Sequence record: OP870144.1
Reading direction: 5' to 3' (one strand)
Length of the DNA stretch: 64,000 nucleotides
DNA from: Escherichia phage vB_Eco_F25
Below, in pieces: positions 7,601 to 40,718 of this stretch (its first letter is position 1; the number at the start of each line of letters is the position of its first letter). Under the pieces are notes generated by a model. That model saw only the letters and a list, made by a program, of their open reading frames with translations, did no database searches and was not told the DNA's origin. The position numbers and the translations under genes were made by a program.

Positions 7601-7816
7601 TTAAGCCTTTTTATCAAGAACAGCATTCAGCTTGTTAGTAATTTTATCCAGACGCACATTGAACTCACTAGAAGATAAGCCCTTTTCTGGAGAAATTAAA
7701 CTAATAACGAAAAATACAACAATAAAAGGAATAAGGAAAATAGCTCCAACTGCCATAAACAAAAAGAATGTTACGGTTGTAAGAAAATCAGCTAAACCTT
7801 TACGAAATTTATACAT
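7601..7816 (-). CDS. small membrane protein (71 aa)
   Basis: Hydrophobic stretch TVTFFLFMAVGAIFLIPFIVVFFVISLI. Confidence 0.5.
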   Translation of the reverse strand: MYKFRKGLADFLTTVTFFLFMAVGAIFLIPFIVVFFVISLISPEKGLSSSEFNVRLDKITNKLNAVLDKKA

Positions 7817-7931
7817 ATTTTACCCTTAATTGATTAACCAAGCATTGATAAGCACTAAACTATACTGTGAATAAAATTCTGGACCAAAATGAAAAATCAT
7901 ATCATTTATAGTATCCATAATGTAATTCAAT

Positions 7932-8402
7932 TTAATCATGTGTCCACACCCCATCGGTATTTGACCAAAGTCGCTGATTATCTGATCCTCGCCACAGCTT
8001 TTTAGTCGGAAGATTTTTCTCATACTTCCCATCAATAATAACATCAACATATTTAAGCATTTCTAGTTGTTTAATATCTTCAAACTTATATCCTGTCCAC
8101 AACCAAATGCTTTTATTGGGATAAAGATTTTTAATAGTTTGAACCACAGAGTGAATCACGTCTCTGTTATCAGGATAAAGAGGGTCTCCTCCAGTTATAG
8201 TTAATCCTTCTATATAATCATTATTCAAACATTCAATTAATTGTTCTAATGTTTCACCAGTGAATGGAATACCATTTCTAGCATTCCATGTTGATTTATT
8301 ATAACACCCTTCGCATTTATGCAAACATCCAGTAACGAAAAGAACTGTCCTGCATCCAGGACCATTAACAAAGCAGCACGGGTATATTCTGTCATAATTC
8401 AT
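7932..8402 (-). CDS. nrdG: anaerobic ribonucleotide reductase activating protein (radical SAM)
   Basis: 156 aa; N-terminus MNYDRIYPCCFVNGPGCRTVLFVTGCLHKCEGC with Cys cluster. Confidence 0.9.
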   Translation of the reverse strand: MNYDRIYPCCFVNGPGCRTVLFVTGCLHKCEGCYNKSTWNARNGIPFTGETLEQLIECLNNDYIEGLTITGGDPLYPDNRDVIHSVVQTIKNLYPNKSIWLWTGYKFEDIKQLEMLKYVDVIIDGKYEKNLPTKKLWRGSDNQRLWSNTDGVWTHD

Positions 8403-9231
8403 TTATATATTTCCAATTATAGCCTTCAACACTTTTACGTTCGCCATTTAAACATTTTAAAATATTTCCTTTGCTAGAAATATTAAAATATTTTGCTGCG
8501 TCTGGTATATAATTAAATGTTTTTAAAAGAACACCATCTTTATATGCGCCAAATAAATTAAGAGTATATTTTTCTCGAAGACGCTGATGTTTCCTTTTCA
8601 TAACCTCAGGATTTGCATACGCCAACTTCAATGAATTTCTGTGTTTTTCTTTTACTTCAGGTTTTTGCATTGCTAACTTAGTTAGCCTGGAAATTTTATT
8701 TCTAACTTCGTCAGTTTTCATTGCATTTGACAAATTTAATAAAGTTTTATTTCTAACTTCAGGTTTTTGCATTGCTAACTTAGTTAGTTCTCTATGTCTT
8801 TTTCTAAAATCGTCATCCTTCCATATATTTTTCGATAATTTTGACATAGAGCGGTGAAATAATTCCTTTTCACTGGAATACAATTTAAAAATTTCATCCA
8901 ATTCATCCGCATTAAATCTATCGGTATTCAAGTTTATCATTCTATGAAAGGCATAACACATTTTACTATTGCTTGTTTTAGCTAAATAGTAATGAGCTAA
9001 CGCATGGTCATAATATGACAAATTAACAATATTCCATTTATCTGTTTTATATTCAGGAAATATAGATTTGGGAAGCACGTGATGTGCTTCCGTTTTTCCT
9101 TTTATTTTAGGATTATTATAATTTTTTGTTATCAAATCAACATATGACAATAGTAAATCATTATTTTCTTCAAATATTAAAGCTAATTTATCATTCACAA
9201 AATCGCAAGGATAAAATCTATCATAATTCAT
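8392..9231 (-). CDS. free-standing HNH homing endonuclease (Mob-like) with NUMOD3 repeats
   Basis: HNH motif EAHHVLPKS...NLSYYDHALAH; repeated LTKLAMQKPEV(R/K)NK motifs; ATG overlaps nrdD stop; first ~13 codons copy the nrdG 5' end. Confidence 0.8.
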   Translation of the reverse strand: MNYDRFYPCDFVNDKLALIFEENNDLLLSYVDLITKNYNNPKIKGKTEAHHVLPKSIFPEYKTDKWNIVNLSYYDHALAHYYLAKTSNSKMCYAFHRMINLNTDRFNADELDEIFKLYSSEKELFHRSMSKLSKNIWKDDDFRKRHRELTKLAMQKPEVRNKTLLNLSNAMKTDEVRNKISRLTKLAMQKPEVKEKHRNSLKLAYANPEVMKRKHQRLREKYTLNLFGAYKDGVLLKTFNYIPDAAKYFNISSKGNILKCLNGERKSVEGYNWKYINEL

Positions 9232-11045
9232 TGGTGTTTAACCCTATGCATGATTTCTTTATTTTTGCCGAGATTAAATCCGCGTTCGTTCGGATTCCCC
9301 AAATAACCGCAAGTTCTTCTTATTGTGTTCATCTTTTTAGGATCAGTTTCTCCACAGATAGAACAAACAAATCCGTTTTCAGTAGGAGTCATTTCATGAG
9401 TACTTCCGCATGTAAAACATTTATCTACTGGCATATTAACACCAAAATAATCTAAATGTTGTGCAGCATAATCCCATACGGCCTCAAGACCCTTTAAGTT
9501 ATTTTTCATATCAGGAAGTTCAACATAAGAAATGTGACCACCTGTCGCAATGAAATGATATGGCGCTTCACGAGAAATCTTTTCAAACGGAGTAACATTT
9601 TCTTCTACTGAAACGTGGAAACTGTTAGTGTACCAGCCTTTATCGGTAACATCTTTTACACTTCCATATTTTTCGGTATCGAGTTTACAGAAGCGATAAC
9701 AAAGGTTTTCAGCAGGAGTAGAATACAAGCTAAAAGCAAATCCGGTTCTTTCAGTCCACTGCTTAAGATGAGCATTCATTTTAGTTAAAATTTCTTGTCC
9801 AATGTCACGACCGACAAGAATATTCAATTCATGAATACCAATGTATCCTAAAGACACTGAACTTCTACCGTTTTTAAATAACTCAATTATGTCGTCATCA
9901 GGTTTAAGACGAACCCCGAATGCACCTTCTTGGTAAAGAATAGGAGCAACAGTCGCTTTAACTCCTTTTAAGGAACTAATTCTACACATCAATGCTTCAA
10001 AACATAAATCCATTCGTTCATTGAATAATTCAACAAATTTCTGTTCATTGAACTGTGTTCCAATATAAGAATCTAACGCAATGCGAGGAAGATTTAGTGT
10101 TACAACGCCAAGATTATTACGTCCATCAAGAATTTCATTACCAGTCGAATCTTTCCATACACTCAAGAAACTGCGGCAACCCATTGGAGAAACAGGAATA
10201 GATGAGCCGGTGATAGCTTTATTGTTCTTAGCTGAAATAATATCAGGATACATTCTTTTGCTTGCGCACTCTAGAGCAAGCTGTTTAATATCATAGTTCG
10301 GATCGTCTTTATAAAGATTAACACCTTCTTCAACAAACATAACAAGCTTAGGGAAAATAGGAGTTATCCCATCACGACCAAGACCGTTAATACGATTTTT
10401 CAGAATTGCTTTCTGAATCATTCGTTCAGTCCAGTCAGTTCCCGTACCAAATGTAATTGTTACAAAAGGCGTTTGTCCGTTTGAACTAAAGAGAGTATTT
10501 ACTTCATATTCATAAGCTTGGAATGCATCGTATACATCTTTTTCTGTTTTAGATTGAGCATAATTCAACGCATCAGCGATTTGCCATTTTTCTGCATCCT
10601 CAATATGTTTTGCATAGGTGCGTTTAACATAAGGAGAAAGTACTTTATCTACATTAGCAAAAGTCGTTCCGCCGTATTGATGGGAAGCAACCTGTGCAGT
10701 AATTTGTGCCATAATTGCAGTAGCAACTCCAATTGATTTAGGAGTTTCAATCTGTGCATTACCAAGCTTAAATCCGTTCTCAAGCATTCCTTTTAAATCT
10801 ACTAAACAACAATTAGTAAATGGAAGAGCAGGGGAATAATCAATATCGTGGAAATGAATAATTCCGCTTTCATGCGCTTTCATAATAAAAGACGGGACCA
10901 TATTTTTGGCAATGTGTTTAGACACAATACCAGCCATAAGGTCCCGTTGAGTTGGAAAAACACGAGAATCTTTATTAGCATTCTCGTTTAAAAGGTCTTT
11001 ATTAGTTTTATGAATCAATCCTTCAATTTCTTTTTCAATTGTCAT
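9228..11045 (-). CDS. nrdD: anaerobic ribonucleoside-triphosphate reductase (glycyl radical enzyme), uninterrupted
   Basis: 605-aa continuous ORF; C-terminal glycyl radical motif RRTCGYLG; no intron present. Confidence 0.9.
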   Translation of the reverse strand: MTIEKEIEGLIHKTNKDLLNENANKDSRVFPTQRDLMAGIVSKHIAKNMVPSFIMKAHESGIIHFHDIDYSPALPFTNCCLVDLKGMLENGFKLGNAQIETPKSIGVATAIMAQITAQVASHQYGGTTFANVDKVLSPYVKRTYAKHIEDAEKWQIADALNYAQSKTEKDVYDAFQAYEYEVNTLFSSNGQTPFVTITFGTGTDWTERMIQKAILKNRINGLGRDGITPIFPKLVMFVEEGVNLYKDDPNYDIKQLALECASKRMYPDIISAKNNKAITGSSIPVSPMGCRSFLSVWKDSTGNEILDGRNNLGVVTLNLPRIALDSYIGTQFNEQKFVELFNERMDLCFEALMCRISSLKGVKATVAPILYQEGAFGVRLKPDDDIIELFKNGRSSVSLGYIGIHELNILVGRDIGQEILTKMNAHLKQWTERTGFAFSLYSTPAENLCYRFCKLDTEKYGSVKDVTDKGWYTNSFHVSVEENVTPFEKISREAPYHFIATGGHISYVELPDMKNNLKGLEAVWDYAAQHLDYFGVNMPVDKCFTCGSTHEMTPTENGFVCSICGETDPKKMNTIRRTCGYLGNPNERGFNLGKNKEIMHRVKHQ

Positions 11046-11515
11046 TTTAAACTCTTTCTAAGCTGCTTCTTAAATGAAGCTATTAACTGTGTTTTGGTGT
11101 CAGATTCATTATATTCAAATCCTCTTTGAAGCATCTCAGCCATCATTTCCTCTTTTCCTAAACGAGAAAATTCCTTTGATTTATCTCCAACAAAGTTAGG
11201 GTGAATATTATTTTGGGTGTAATCGGATTTTAAGTAAGTAAGTAAATTTTCTAACCATTCAAGATAATCAACCCCTTGTCCCTTTAAGCCAGAACGATTA
11301 AATTTATGTTTCATTTGACCTTCTGCGGCATTGCAGAGATTACAAAGCAATCCACGCACCTTTCCTGCTTTTGGTCCATTTAATTCATGGTCATGGTCGA
11401 GGTGATTAGCTTGAACATCAGGATTTAGTTCTCGTTGGCAAATTAAGCATTTACCGTTTTGTGCATCATAAAATTTCTGTTTTTCTTCTTTATATAATTT
11501 GCCAGTCAATAACAT
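11042..11515 (-). CDS. 49: endonuclease VII (Holliday junction resolvase)
   Basis: 157 aa, same length as T4 gp49; Zn-binding CLIC...CNLC and HxxHDH motif. Confidence 0.9.
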   Translation of the reverse strand: MLLTGKLYKEEKQKFYDAQNGKCLICQRELNPDVQANHLDHDHELNGPKAGKVRGLLCNLCNAAEGQMKHKFNRSGLKGQGVDYLEWLENLLTYLKSDYTQNNIHPNFVGDKSKEFSRLGKEEMMAEMLQRGFEYNESDTKTQLIASFKKQLRKSLK

Positions 11516-20672: not shown

Positions 20673-21683
20673 TCATTTATAATAACTTTGGTGGTTTTCA
20701 AGATAAACCTTCTCAAGGAAGTCATCCCAGAAACCCATGTCTACTTTTTGCTGCATACCGTTCTTAGAAGCTTCAGTAGATGCTGCTTCTACTTGATCGA
20801 CCACATCTTCCAAAAACTCTTGAACCGTTTTAAATGGATGTTTACCCAACTTCACGTCGAGAATAAATGGAGCATCTTGAAGTGGATAGACTAAGTCACC
20901 AGTTTTGTAAATTTCCAATAGTTGGAGTCCACCACGACAAGCATGACTCAGAGCTTTCCAGTCAATGCCCTCATTCGCTTCAGCCTTACGAGCGCGTTCG
21001 CCGTATTCAGCATCAAGTTTATTCAAAGACTGCTTAAGCTCAATAAGAGAAAGCGTTGTTTGATATTTACGACCCAACACAGTGTAGAACGTTTGTGGGC
21101 CTGTTTTCTCATGATTATGAAATACCCATTCACAGAATTCATTCTCTGGAAGACGATGCTTAATATCTTCAACTTTAGTGCGACGCTGCTTAATAGAACC
21201 ATCTTCTTGGTAATCAACCCATTGCTCAGGGATTTGATTAACTACTTTCAATACATCACGTAATGCAGCCAAACGAGAACCCTTGACACCATATTTAGAG
21301 GCTTGTTTACGAACATACCCTAAATAGGATTTCATATTAGTTGTATAGAAACGAGATCGGTTGTCTTGAATAAACTTCCACACATCAGGCAAATCAGATT
21401 TAACCACTAGTTCAGGTGGAGTGTGAAGCATATCTAATGCTACAGTTTCACCATCTGCTGCTAATTTAAAGAAATACTTAAGACTGTATAGTTCATGGTC
21501 AATATCATCTTTAGTGTTTTTAGATGATGTGTTGTTAGTGTTTTTACTCATATGCTCTTTAACATTTCCGATAAGAATATCGCGAGCAGGAGGAACAAAG
21601 ATTTCTTTAAAATCTACATCAGATTCTGGGGTAGAAGTTCCATAAAGATGACTACCAAAATAAGACTTAACTACAGTTTTCAT
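20673..21683 (-). CDS. predicted nucleotidyltransferase-fold protein
   Basis: GS-x10-DVD signature (GSHLYGTSTPESDVD) plus downstream acidic residue in VALDMLH; ATG at 21683 with SD. Confidence 0.6.
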   Translation of the reverse strand: MKTVVKSYFGSHLYGTSTPESDVDFKEIFVPPARDILIGNVKEHMSKNTNNTSSKNTKDDIDHELYSLKYFFKLAADGETVALDMLHTPPELVVKSDLPDVWKFIQDNRSRFYTTNMKSYLGYVRKQASKYGVKGSRLAALRDVLKVVNQIPEQWVDYQEDGSIKQRRTKVEDIKHRLPENEFCEWVFHNHEKTGPQTFYTVLGRKYQTTLSLIELKQSLNKLDAEYGERARKAEANEGIDWKALSHACRGGLQLLEIYKTGDLVYPLQDAPFILDVKLGKHPFKTVQEFLEDVVDQVEAASTEASKNGMQQKVDMGFWDDFLEKVYLENHQSYYK

Positions 21684-22446
21684 TATTAGACCTTTCATAA
21701 TCTTCATTAAATTGTACAATCAATCGATGATAATTAGATTTTGGATATCCTAATTTACTTATATAAGTTCCGAATGACCCACGTTTAGGTCTATTTAATT
21801 TAATCCATAACTTATAAAGTAAGTCATAGTCTTGCCAATGTTTACCAGTTCTTTGTCTAATTTTAGATGAATTTGATTGTTTCTTTTTAGTTTCAAAATT
21901 ATTCAAAGATTTTTTGACTGCAGCAGAGTGTTTTTCTTTAACTCCCGGTCGTTTAAAAGCAGCTTTCACCCCTTTAGATATTTTTTCTTTAACTTCCGGT
22001 TTGTTTTGTGCTTCTAACTGGGATTCTGAAATTTTAGCCCTTATTTCAGGAAGACTTAATGTTATCGAACGTTTTTCTCTGTATTCATTAGACTTCCACA
22101 TTTCTTTCATTGTATTAGAATGTATTTTTGAAAATTTTTCTCTAACTAACTGATATCCTCTTGAAGTTAATTTGAGATTTCTTCCTAAAGAATCTTCTCC
22201 AAAATTATAAAATGACCACCATGCATAAATTAATCCAGGCGAATTATAATGAATTTTAGCTAAAAGCCAATGGGCTATAAAATGCTCTCTAGCTGTTAAT
22301 AAAACTAGATTATCAGAATCATCATTACCACCAATACAAGATGGAATAATATGATGCTTTTCCGTATAAAAATTTAATTTAGATTTATCTAATTTTCTGA
22401 GTTTTCCTTTCTTAATTAAATTATTATATACTTTAGTATAATTCAT
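21667..22446 (-). CDS. HNH homing endonuclease (Mob-like) with NUMOD3 motifs
   Basis: HHIIPSCIGGNDDSDNLVLLTAREHFIAHW HNH core; PEVKEKISKG and PGVKEKHSAAVKKS repeats. Confidence 0.7.
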   Translation of the reverse strand: MNYTKVYNNLIKKGKLRKLDKSKLNFYTEKHHIIPSCIGGNDDSDNLVLLTAREHFIAHWLLAKIHYNSPGLIYAWWSFYNFGEDSLGRNLKLTSRGYQLVREKFSKIHSNTMKEMWKSNEYREKRSITLSLPEIRAKISESQLEAQNKPEVKEKISKGVKAAFKRPGVKEKHSAAVKKSLNNFETKKKQSNSSKIRQRTGKHWQDYDLLYKLWIKLNRPKRGSFGTYISKLGYPKSNYHRLIVQFNEDYERSNNENCS

Positions 22447-30434: not shown

Positions 30435-31013
30435 TTAATTACCACGGGCTGCATTAGCAACGGCATAAGCGTACTGAACATTAGCGTCCTTAAACGTACC
30501 TTTAGAGGTATCTATTTCTGCCTTAAAGCCGCCTTTAGCCATAACATCGGCAAATTCTTTACGGAAAGCCATTGCATCAAGACCTTTCCATGATGATTTG
30601 TGCTTAGCGAATTCAAGACCAGCGTAGTTGACAGCCTTAGCTAATTTATTATCAATGACCCATTTACCGGCTTTAGGCACAAACTTCGGGCCTTTTTGTT
30701 TAGAGAACAGTTTTAAATTCCAGCGACGAAGATCACTGTCGGCTTTAACAAAAGCTGCGTCTAAGTTACTAGCAACAACATCTTCAATATGAGCAAATTT
30801 AAGTCCGTCAACTTCAATATTTAAATCGGTACGCCAGCGAAGTCCTTCCCAAGCGAAAGCTTTAAAATCGGAAGCTTTTGTAGCTAAGTATCGTTCAATA
30901 GGGGCTGTTTTAGGGTCAAAGCCGTTTCCACCACGATAGTTCCACTCGTCCTTATTAATGCCTTTTGCCTTTACTACAGAAGCTTCAGCAATAAATTCTT
31001 GATACGTTTTCAT
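30435..31013 (-). CDS. ipIII: internal head protein, IPIII-like, with capsid-targeting sequence
   Basis: N-terminal CTS MKTYQEFIAEA (prohead protease motif IAE-A); 192 aa, close to T4 IPIII size. Confidence 0.7.
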   Translation of the reverse strand: MKTYQEFIAEASVVKAKGINKDEWNYRGGNGFDPKTAPIERYLATKASDFKAFAWEGLRWRTDLNIEVDGLKFAHIEDVVASNLDAAFVKADSDLRRWNLKLFSKQKGPKFVPKAGKWVIDNKLAKAVNYAGLEFAKHKSSWKGLDAMAFRKEFADVMAKGGFKAEIDTSKGTFKDANVQYAYAVANAARGN

Positions 31014-31029
31014 TTTTGTTTCCTTGTTT

Positions 31030-31073
31030 GTTTTGATAGAGTAATTATATCATATTAATACTTAAGCGTAAAC
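31030..31073 (-). promoter_or_regulatory. candidate promoter upstream of the IPIII-like gene
   Basis: TTTAC-N18-TATAAT on minus strand. Confidence 0.4.
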
Positions 31074-31076
31074 TGT

Positions 31077-31337
31077 TTAAGCTTTACCGCCAGAAATAAT
31101 TCCGAAGTTGTTAAAATCATATCCAATATCGTCAACATCTACTTTAGGGCTTGCTACAACATAAGCAATTTCACTACGTTTTGCATAGGTGTTTATTTCT
31201 CTACCATCGCCGCCTAGGAAAGAATACCCATTACGTTTTAATGAGACAAAATCTTCGGCATCACCAACGAAAGCTTTAACTTTAAATTTGGGGCCTTTGG
31301 CATCTGCTTCAGCGATAAATTCTTGATACATTTTCAT
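31077..31337 (-). CDS. ipII: internal head protein, IPII-like, with capsid-targeting sequence
   Basis: N-terminal MKMYQEFIAEA CTS; 86 aa. Confidence 0.6.
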   Translation of the reverse strand: MKMYQEFIAEADAKGPKFKVKAFVGDAEDFVSLKRNGYSFLGGDGREINTYAKRSEIAYVVASPKVDVDDIGYDFNNFGIISGGKA

Positions 31338-36091: not shown

Positions 36092-36655
36092 TTATTTATC
36101 TAGTTTAGTTATTATAGCTTCTGCGGCAGCTTTTAGCTTAGATGCGGTGTTAATACGATTTTTAATTTCAGTATACGCATCGCCAAGAACATCAAGGCTA
36201 TCAGAATAAACGCTTACACTATTGCGTTCGCTATTTGAAATAGAACCTTTAGTTTTACGATCAAAATCGATGTACACGTCTTGAAGATCACGGGCTGCCT
36301 TCTTTGCATCATCCAATGCATCAAGAGCTTTATTCAAAGCATTAACGTATTTTTTAGTGTCGAACATATTCTTAGAAATTTTAACAGGCGCACGTTCAGG
36401 AGTAGCTAAGGCAGATTTAGGAACCTGAGCGCCAGATGCCAGTTTCTTAGAAATTTTGAAAAATGCTTTATTGAATTTATTTTCTTGACTCATCGTAAAA
36501 GAACTATTATCAATGTTATACATTTCAATAGCTTTAGCTTTCCACTTAAGAAAATCGCCACGGTCTTTTGGGTCCAATTGGAAGAATACTTTAGTAAGTT
36601 CTGCTTCAGATGGTAATTTTGCTGCTTCGGTTAAAAATTCGGCATAGGTTTTCAT
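36092..36655 (-). CDS. capsid-targeted (internal-protein-like) protein, 187 aa
   Basis: N-terminal MKTYAEFLTEA CTS; Lys/Ala-rich. Confidence 0.6.
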   Translation of the reverse strand: MKTYAEFLTEAAKLPSEAELTKVFFQLDPKDRGDFLKWKAKAIEMYNIDNSSFTMSQENKFNKAFFKISKKLASGAQVPKSALATPERAPVKISKNMFDTKKYVNALNKALDALDDAKKAARDLQDVYIDFDRKTKGSISNSERNSVSVYSDSLDVLGDAYTEIKNRINTASKLKAAAEAIITKLDK

Positions 36656-36736
36656 TTAAAATCCTTGAAATAATTTATCGGTCAGTTATTAATTATTTAT
36701 TACTTTGTTATTATCCGTAACAGCATTCTCTATGCG

Positions 36737-36769
36737 ATTCAAACTAAAAAGCCCCAACCTTTCGGTCGA
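36737..36769 (-). terminator. rho-independent terminator
   Basis: AGCCTCGACC-GAAA-GGTTGGGGCT hairpin + TTTTTAG; near-identical copy at 37299. Confidence 0.6.
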
Positions 36770-36780
36770 GGCTAAGAATG

Positions 36781-37254
36781 TTATTTGATTTGTTTAGCAG
36801 ACCAAATGCGGTCTTTGATGATTTTTTGGAGATCTTCAACATACTCTAGGTCATGAGCATGTGGATTATCTTTGAAACTATAGGCACGGGCTAATTTTTG
36901 GCCTTCGGTTTTAATTACTAAAAGCTCTTTAAGGATAGCTTCATATTTAGCGATAATTCCTTTAACAATATTTTTTTCTTGTGCAGCTTTAGGATCTGCT
37001 TTAGGAGCAGGTTTACCGGAAGGTTTTTCGAAAGCCGCACCAGTAGCAACCAGACTTTTCCAGGCGGTGGTAACATAGTTACCCACAAAGCCTTCAGCTC
37101 TCATATCGTCGTAGAACTTGTACCGGGATTCGTCAGAAGCATCTTTATAAGAATATTTACCAGATTTAATAGCAGCAGTTGCTACAGCGCGAACATCTGA
37201 AGCGGATGCTTCATTTAACACCGCTTCATTTAAAAATTGAGCATATGATTTCAT
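36781..37254 (-). CDS. capsid-targeted (internal-protein-like) protein, 157 aa
   Basis: N-terminal MKSYAQFLNEA CTS-like sequence; late-promoter-like TATAAATA upstream. Confidence 0.6.
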   Translation of the reverse strand: MKSYAQFLNEAVLNEASASDVRAVATAAIKSGKYSYKDASDESRYKFYDDMRAEGFVGNYVTTAWKSLVATGAAFEKPSGKPAPKADPKAAQEKNIVKGIIAKYEAILKELLVIKTEGQKLARAYSFKDNPHAHDLEYVEDLQKIIKDRIWSAKQIK

Positions 37255-40030: not shown

Positions 40031-40339
40031 CTATTTTATTCCGCGTGATGCAATTGTGTTCTGCCGTTTAACACCAGTTTGTTTAAAGTCATGATTGTCG
40101 ATTTGATCAGTACGAGCAACTCCGAATGATGATTTGATCTTAGCTTTAGATCCTTTAGTTATAGAAATAAACATCTCGGAAGCCCCTTTCTTAAAGTCCG
40201 AGGCGATTACTTCAACGCCGTTCTTAGCAAGTGACTTCAGAATTGCCTCTGCATACTCATCGTCAAGACTCGTCTGAGTATTAATAACGAATGTCTTTGG
40301 CGCAGCCGCTTCATTGATAAATTCTTTAAATGTTTTCAT
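40031..40339 (-). CDS. capsid-targeted (internal-protein-like) protein, 102 aa
   Basis: N-terminal MKTFKEFINEAA CTS. Confidence 0.6.
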   Translation of the reverse strand: MKTFKEFINEAAAPKTFVINTQTSLDDEYAEAILKSLAKNGVEVIASDFKKGASEMFISITKGSKAKIKSSFGVARTDQIDNHDFKQTGVKRQNTIASRGIK

Positions 40340-40399
40340 TTTATTTTCCTAATTAATTTTGATGAGATAATAGTACCACAACCCTATTTAAAAGTAAAC

Positions 40400-40672
40400 T
40401 CATTTTAAATAAATTGCGTATTTTTTATAACCCGCTGACTCATGACGAAGACCCTTATCATTAGCAAAACGCTCAATGTTATTAATTTGATTCTGGTCAA
40501 GTTCAGAGATGTCAAACACGAAAAAGTTACGTTTGTTACCAACTGTTACATAGTCAGTTAAATCAATATCATATAGGTAATTGATGTCAGCAATCAAAGT
40601 CTTGACAGCTTTGCTAATTTTTACTTTTTCGTTAAAAGCAGCTTCATTGATAAATTCTTTAAATGTTTTCAT
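40400..40672 (-). CDS. ipI: internal protein I-like, with capsid-targeting sequence
   Basis: ATG at 40672 with SD GGAG gives MKTFKEFINEAA; about 90 aa; located just upstream of 57B as ipI is in T4. Confidence 0.55.
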   Translation of the reverse strand: MKTFKEFINEAAFNEKVKISKAVKTLIADINYLYDIDLTDYVTVGNKRNFFVFDISELDQNQINNIERFANDKGLRHESAGYKKYAIYLK

Positions 40673-40718
40673 TTTATTCTCCAATCACTCATTTGTTTTG
40701 ATAGGGTAATAGTATCAT
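40668..40718 (-). repeat. 51-bp promoter/leader direct repeat, copy 2
   Basis: Exact copy of 39948..39998. Confidence 0.7.

Follow-up and report, generated by a model that had tools for sequence, protein, structure and literature searches.

How can a selfish gene enter an operon in which the stop codon of one gene overlaps the start codon of the next, and leave both neighbours active? This question is raised by the junction of nrdD and nrdG in a 64,000-nucleotide (nt) stretch (the window) of Escherichia phage vB_Eco_F25 (sequence record OP870144.1), a T4-like phage (Tequatrovirus). The minus strand of the window carries nrdD (9228..11045), an open reading frame (ORF) of 279 amino acids (aa) for a homing endonuclease (8392..9231) and nrdG (7932..8402), and the latter two begin with versions of the same 40 nt. 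From comparisons with insert-free relatives, we consider it probable that this locus harbors an intron-less homing-endonuclease cassette lodged in coding sequence, which combines an HNH frame lacking its own start codon with a re-spelled copy of the 40-nt nrdG 5' end.

A duplicated nrdG 5' end beside an endonuclease gene

The peptides at the two ORF starts are MNYDRFYPCDFVND for the endonuclease and MNYDRIYPCCFVNG for nrdG. A preliminary description of this DNA had put the similarity of the two 5' ends at about 33 of 42 nt; we counted 32 matches in the first 42 nt, with flanks at chance level (17/60 over the 60 nt upstream and 23/78 over the 78 nt downstream). A repeat finder independently returned 8363-8403 against 9192-9232 (41 nt, 78% identical, spacing 829), and the repeat extends from nt -1 to +40 of nrdG. 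On both strands of the window (128,000 positions), the next-best match to either 42-mer was 25/42. The endonuclease/nrdG pair matched at 29/39 positions, compared with a mean of 11/39 (standard deviation 2.9) across 14,365 pairs of ORF starts, and comparable pairs were found solely among MKTYQEFIAEA-type leaders of another gene family. Most differences between the two copies are synonymous, and all other occurrences of the 13-aa leader that we found were at the starts of insert-free nrdG genes.

The MKTYQEFIAEA-like leaders occur in several minus-strand ORFs (30435-31337, 36092-37254 and 40031-40684, with 23-30 of 39 nt shared) and represent the sole other N-terminal similarities at the nucleotide level in the window. 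We take this leader to be the capsid-targeting leader of T4 internal proteins.

Both overlaps given in the preliminary description were seen, namely the ATGA shared with the nrdD stop codon and the 11 nt shared with the nrdG start. The features of the locus are as follows.

9228..11045, minus: nrdD, large subunit of the anaerobic ribonucleotide reductase, uninterrupted (Pfam NRDD, E=5e-171)
9228-9231, minus: overlap of the nrdD TGA and the endonuclease ATG (ATGA), from the ORF list
9192..9231, minus: copy A, the resident first 40 nt of nrdG, with which the endonuclease ORF now begins (13 1/3 codons; 39/40 to phage RB14)
8403..9191, minus: body of the HNH endonuclease, cassette-borne (ORF nt 41-829; PHROG_655, PHROG_12434)
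8980..9093, minus: putative HNH (beta-beta-alpha-metal) core, residues 47-84 (EAHHVLPKS...WNIVNLSYYDHALAHYYL)
8644..8787, minus: internal direct repeats, KLAMQKPEV(R/K) helices, linker or DNA-binding region (repeat families D1 and D3)
8416..8529, minus: putative C-terminal NUMOD-like DNA-binding domain, residues 235-272, weak match (PF22083, NUMOD1)
8392..8394, minus: endonuclease TGA, which falls on nt 9-11 of nrdG and gives the 11-nt overlap
8363..8402, minus: copy B, the cassette-borne, recoded first 40 nt of nrdG (MNYDRIYPCC...; 32/40 to RB14)
7932..8402, minus: nrdG, activase of the anaerobic ribonucleotide reductase, intact (Pfam Fer4_12, E=1.4e-48, and Radical_SAM)
8347..8362, minus: palindrome GTCCTGGATGCAGGAC, nt 41-56 of nrdG, a terminator-like match kept in RB14, U5 and JY1

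The preliminary assignment of the ORF to the HNH-type homing endonucleases of the Mob family agrees with its profile matches. The window protein belongs to PHROG_655 ('homing endonuclease', E=2.9e-36), the family profile of the T4 Mob proteins, which is also the top family for T4 MobC (4e-43) and for a paralogue at gene 46 (4.8e-45); it further matches PHROG_12434 ('HNH endonuclease', E=1.2e-14), and a tblastn search with the endonuclease matched genes annotated as mobD and MobE-like. The endonuclease shows an invariant HH...N...H...H pattern, and an AlphaFold2 (AF2) model (predicted local distance difference test score 73.8) places it on a strand-strand-helix unit at residues 47-84. We therefore regard an HNH fold as likely and no more than that, because the Pfam NUMOD matches are sub-threshold and the structure searches gave no significant match. 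Of the former, PF22083 I-HmuI_NUMOD-like (E=2.4e-4) scores 21.1 bits, short of its 27-bit cut-off, and NUMOD1 (E=5.7e-3) likewise falls below the gathering score. Neither Pfam nor NCBIfam gave an HNH assignment for the window protein, and neither the protein alone nor a profile of 7 sequences gave a significant match in sequence searches of the PDB. The ratio of nonsynonymous to synonymous substitution rates (dN/dS) between the endonucleases of the window and of Klebsiella phage Roth67 was 0.08 at a dS of 0.86; therefore, the protein is maintained by purifying selection. The internal direct repeats are spaced at 51/102 nt, and one database variant (P0002) is short of one unit.

A group I intron-borne endonuclease or an intein was considered and rejected: a Rfam scan of 7800-11200 returned no intron or other RNA family at a meaningful score, and nrdG is a separate, complete ORF. 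In T4 and phage PST, nrdD contains a group I intron that includes I-TevII. The nrdD gene of the window is uninterrupted, and this phage therefore has the junction endonuclease and not the intron endonuclease.

Resident and travelling copies in two genera

Comparison with insert-free T-even genomes had been proposed as a check in the preliminary description. In insert-free RB14, the nrdD stop and the nrdG start overlap directly, also as ATGA. The RB14 nrdG start matches copy A at 39/40 positions, with 59/60 identity upstream, and matches copy B at only 32/40. The eight differences between copy B and the insert-free allele lie at nt 12, 16, 18, 21, 24 and 28-30, and thus 8 of the 13 mismatches between the window and RB14 nrdG genes fall within nt 12-30; over nt 41-471, 426 of 431 positions (98.8%) are identical.

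The same endonuclease, with 85.7% aa identity, is carried by ten Klebsiella phages of the genus Jiaodavirus. The nrdG gene of insert-free Jiaodavirus JY1 begins with ATGAATTTCGACAGAATCTACCCTTCTGACTTTGTGAATG (MNFDRIYPSDFVN), and the head of the endonuclease in the carrier Roth67 is identical to this start (40/40, plus 59/60 upstream). The nrdG gene of Roth67 begins with a peptide identical to that of the window copy B; at the nucleotide level, the two copies match at 34/40 positions, with six synonymous differences, compared with 30/40 between Roth67 copy B and the JY1 nrdG start. Mismatches between the Roth67 and JY1 nrdG genes occupy nt 6-29, followed by identity over nt 30-113 and the next mismatch at nt 114. 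In all six carriers examined from the two genera, copy A tracks the host lineage (MNYDRF..CD in Tequatrovirus, MNFDRI..SD in Jiaodavirus), whereas copy B is always of the same type (hereafter the CC type). Between the genera, nucleotide identity is 85.0% for the endonuclease body and 85% for copy B, compared with 75.1% for nrdD and 68.8% for the rest of nrdG. The higher identity of the cassette than of its flanks indicates that the cassette moved between the genera.

On these comparisons, copy A is the resident nrdG 5' end, and copy B travels with the endonuclease. The mobile unit so delimited is the endonuclease frame from codon 14 onward plus a 40-nt nrdG 5' segment, placed between nt 40 and 41 of nrdG. 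An insertion inside the first nrdG codons, as previously described, fits this layout, in which the gene is flanked by two nrdG 5' copies with the junction after nt 40. The accompanying claim that the insertion regenerated a copy of its target does not hold in the sense of a transposon-type duplication: the copy fused to the endonuclease is the original, and the one heading nrdG is foreign, recoded and moves with the endonuclease. Because the insertion lies exactly after nt 40, the endonuclease lacks a start codon of its own; copy A supplies the ATG and couples translation to that of nrdD. Ahead of the catalytic HH, the Roth67 frame has ATG, GTG or TTG only at codons 1 and 12, both in copy A.

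The endonuclease gene was found in 31 of about 830 related phage records (21 Tequatrovirus and 10 Klebsiella phages), nrdD and nrdG adjoin without interruption in about 700 records, and other phages carry T4-type mobC or the GIY-YIG gene segH there. Such a presence/absence polymorphism at a fixed site, together with horizontal movement, is the behavior of a homing endonuclease gene. Shigella phage ESh25 and its relatives are 99% identical to the window over a 1.5-kb region. A word-indexed protein search returned 8 relatives of the endonuclease. IMG/VR yielded no endonuclease of the window type, and its matches to the 13-aa leader were insert-free nrdG genes only; residue 10 of NrdG was Asp in 22/22 readable T4-like insert-free loci from viral metagenomes.

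The CC allele occurs in 2 of about 703 insert-free records. In these phages, U5 and ESh24, it matches copy B at 39/40 positions and is joined directly to a normal nrdD end. They are candidates for precise loss of the cassette via recombination between the repeats, and other histories are possible. Phage HY03 combines SegH with an ordinary nrdG start. Given HY03 on the one hand and U5 and ESh24 on the other, we rejected the idea that the CC allele always goes with an endonuclease; by its distribution, the allele is tied to the cassette strongly but not exclusively.

Three other features of the junction were observed. First, Klebsiella phage KP01 has a 2-nt TA insertion, and its endonuclease ends with ...WKYI-TAA directly before the nrdG ATG (L057 980-1000); therefore, the 11-nt overlap is not essential. 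Second, the Klebsiella phages of Jiaodavirus have an extra 77-aa ORF between nrdD and nrdG (L007 2796-3029, L010 1603-1836), which overlaps the nrdG start by 29 nt in a different frame, and runs into copy A in carriers. Third, the palindrome GTCCTGGATGCAGGAC has a 6-bp stem, encodes GPGCR and starts exactly at the cassette insertion point; it could have a role in cleavage, recombination or translation. A sigma-70 promoter scan was at background (10 matches compared with 9.2 expected).

A proposed mechanism and its competitors

We propose that translation of the nuclease is driven by the resident nrdG ATG and first 13 codons, coupled to nrdD through ATGA, and that nrdG is rebuilt from the cassette's own 5' copy. 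The chain from nrdD through the nuclease to nrdG would remain translationally coupled via the captured ATGA, with nrdG translated either by re-initiation once the nuclease frame has ended, 8 nt past the new ATG, or through a weak site located in the final nuclease codons. No intact insert-free target is left in the genome: the half-site in copy A runs into nuclease sequence, and the junction of copy B and nrdG is complete but has eight substitutions at nt 12-30, including the codon change D10C. In mixed infections, the nuclease would cut insert-free nrdG at or near nt 40/41. The broken ends would match the donor at once (nrdD and copy A on the left, nrdG from nt 41 onward on the right), and double-strand-break repair from the carrier genome would then copy the cassette in. 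The recoding may give self-immunity and may also help to retain the cassette by making the repeats less prone to recombine with each other.

Comparable arrangements are present at other sites. A paralogue of the endonuclease (35% identical) lies between genes 46.1 and 46 in T2, G28 and BYEP01. It starts with the GTG and first 18 nt of gene 46 itself, the region upstream shows 60/60 identity to T4, which lacks a homing-endonuclease gene (HEG) at this site, and gene 46 restarts 15 nt past the paralogue, its ATGAAATCA-TTTAAACTT being recoded. A further homologue, from a metagenome and with a core that is 52% identical, has ATGAAAGATTT in common with the exonuclease-like gene downstream of it. Such capture of a host start is thus recurrent in this endonuclease subgroup but, given the homologues without a duplication described below, not universal.

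The start of the gene-46 endonuclease is chimeric in phage G28 (L005 2271-2520): nt 1-18 are the gene 46 start, and nt 17-35 (TTGACATTAATGATGAATT) equal nt 17-35 of the upstream gene 46.1, which is also present in HEG-less T4 (L006 2600-2690). In T2 (L004 2474-3326) and RB68 (P0006), this endonuclease is shortened to 205-208 aa, compared with 284 aa, and is followed by a small ORF; it looks like a decaying element. A 259-aa ORF on the minus strand of the window (21667-22446) starts with MNYTKVYNNLIKKGKL (MNYTKVYNNLI), similar to the T4 MobC start MNYDRIYSNLVNS; it may be another Mob-like gene, and a simple HNH motif scan missed it.

The weakest step in the proposal concerns whether the recoding confers immunity or is merely the allele of the lineage of origin. 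The points that weigh against our proposal are those on which its two strongest competitors draw. In the first competitor, copy B is the nrdG allele of the lineage that first hosted a conventional free-standing endonuclease; it was co-converted with that endonuclease, and its differences reflect ordinary divergence. This explanation overlaps with ours and disputes only the immunity step. The CC allele is also present beside segH in RB3 and fPS-2, and in insert-free U5 and ESh24. Because it is found in these settings too, it may be an nrdG allele of earlier origin that was acquired by the cassette, rather than one shaped for immunity. Three more markers are linked to it at nt 48-66: the window differs from RB14 also at nt 48, 57 and 66, the next mismatch being only at nt 399, and because of these, the right boundary inferred from the alignments is less sharp in Tequatrovirus than in Jiaodavirus. 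The predominance of synonymous differences between copies A and B is likewise as in ordinary divergence. However, eight mismatches in 30 nt stand beside 98.8% identity over the other 431 nt, only the two insert-free records mentioned above, of about 703, have the CC allele, and Asp10 is otherwise invariant in the 22 insert-free loci, which span several genera, with all three bases of its codon changed to give Cys. We accordingly judge this explanation unlikely, though it deserves serious weight.

A second competitor is that the arrangement is a one-off scar of illegitimate recombination, with a nuclease that is immobile or domesticated and copy differences that play no part in immunity. The activity of T4 mobC is listed as 'ND', and its target as unknown, in a 2010 review (PMC2988022). 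Other members of the family do without a duplication: the homologues in pEK20 (Mosigvirus, gene 46) and in LC53, Biddle and YI837 (genes 14/15) have N-termini of their own. The gene-14/15 Mob genes do share a 9-nt offset match with gp15, but we judged that chance could account for it. The existence of the CC allele without this nuclease also fits a scar. Against this explanation, the same cassette with the same exact junctions occurs in two genera and, by its 85% identity between these genera compared with 69-75% for its flanks, has moved; the nuclease protein is under strong purifying selection; and the layout is found again, independently, at gene 46 and in the metagenomic contig. We thus consider a scar improbable.

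Direct target repeats that flank an insert are also expected from a transposon-like duplication, in which a staggered cut with ends 40 nt apart is filled in. Such a process would leave two identical, host-derived repeats, but the repeats are only 78% identical in every carrier, and one copy tracks the host while the other tracks the cassette across genera; the idea was rejected and retains very little credit. Least credible of all is a chance resemblance or a generic N-terminal leader of many phage genes, an objection foreseen in the preliminary description: 'MNY..(I/V)Y.NL' is maybe a common start, given T4 MobC and the 259-aa ORF, but the match is at the nucleotide level, is unique among the 128,000 positions, continues through PCDFVN, which is specific to NrdG, and reaches 40/40 against the local nrdG of a second genus, and the leader peptide retrieves nrdG genes only.

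Comparison with known systems and meaning

Homing endonucleases have a known hot spot at the nrdD-nrdG locus (PMC2988022). The preliminary description had likened the window gene to T4 mobC. This comparison stands as regards position, since T4 mobC occupies the same intergenic site, with the same ATGA overlap with nrdD and 11-nt overlap with nrdG, and the two proteins share the PHROG family and a similar C-terminal end (...GY.WKY..EL). As regards the protein it does not stand: T4 MobC is 210 aa long, compared with 279 aa in the window, the two are 29% identical globally, and BLASTP aligns only residues 42-100 (59 aa, the HNH core; 37%, E=5e-7), so that orthology over the full length was rejected. 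The annotation of phage PST gives the name mobC to an endonuclease of the window type. Start capture was also considered for T4 MobC, with an ambiguous outcome: it is not demonstrable there because the N-terminus (MNYDRIYS-NLVNS), which fits about 7 codons of nrdG, also fits a generic Mob start.

SegH is a GIY-YIG homing endonuclease that reportedly replaces mobC in some T-even phages. It resembles the window endonuclease in its location at the nrdD-nrdG junction and in its linkage to a CC-type nrdG start in RB3 and fPS-2, but it belongs to another nuclease family, is preceded by a spacer of its own, is not fused to the nrdG start and lacks a duplication. SegH phages show heavy recoding over the final ~25 codons of nrdD (the NrdD C-terminus reads ...GTPSVVPWNLGKMKEMVKRVKHA; RB3, L008 2301-3200; L058, L059). 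The annotated SegH ORF of RB3 appears to lack the N-terminal GIY part.

In fungal mitochondria, endonuclease genes are fused in frame to host exons and borrow their expression signals, a process termed 'core creep'; rps3 is fused in frame to a LAGLIDADG gene, and partial duplications of atp6 and cox1 are known (PMC7902536, PMC7487136). These intron-encoded and mitochondrial cases concern organelles and mostly involve introns or duplications of 3' ends, with pseudogene fragments often left behind. In contrast, the window locus has no intron, the 5' end is duplicated, the resident copy serves as the nuclease start, and the imported copy restores the host gene. Among 'genes in pieces', mobE splits nrdA in Aeromonas phage Aeh1, and a mobA element lies between T4 genes 39 and 60. 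These cases share with the window a Mob-family HNH gene inside the coding region of a nucleotide-metabolism or replication gene whose function is retained (bioRxiv 10.1101/2022.08.31.505936), but the host protein is split into two polypeptides or translational bypassing is needed. NrdG of the window remains a single polypeptide, as the cassette brings a replacement for the displaced 5' segment. The present arrangement was not found described in the literature that we searched on mobC with nrdG or Tequatrovirus, and on duplications and start codons of free-standing phage endonucleases, a search that did not cover Sandegren et al. 2005.

The free-standing homing endonuclease genes of T-even phages are a textbook model, and the arrangement reported here is a variation on known homing-endonuclease biology, not a new kind of element. 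To our knowledge, most mob genes have no known target or mode of expression. The present layout makes predictions on both: translation of the nuclease from the captured nrdG start codon, cleavage at the insertion point 40 nt into nrdG, and resistance that maps to the eight re-spelled bases. It represents a route by which a selfish gene can enter an ATGA-overlapped operon and leave both neighbours active, without an intron or intein, and accounts for the Cys that replaces an otherwise invariant Asp in NrdG of carrier phages. It also calls for caution in annotation, as such 'endonucleases' begin with 13 residues that are those of the host gene.

Tentatively, and with somewhat more doubt than confidence, we suggest that this may be a general and so far undescribed strategy of a subgroup of phage HNH endonucleases, a 'splice-free intron' that inserts a few codons into its host gene, takes over the start codon and translational coupling of that gene, and carries a re-spelled 5' repair segment that at the same time destroys the target of the nuclease. 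If this is true, the strategy would explain how free-standing endonucleases come to lie in operons that have no intergenic space, such as those with ATGA overlaps, and would allow cleavage sites to be predicted from sequence alone: nt 40/41 of nrdG and nt 18/19 of gene 46.

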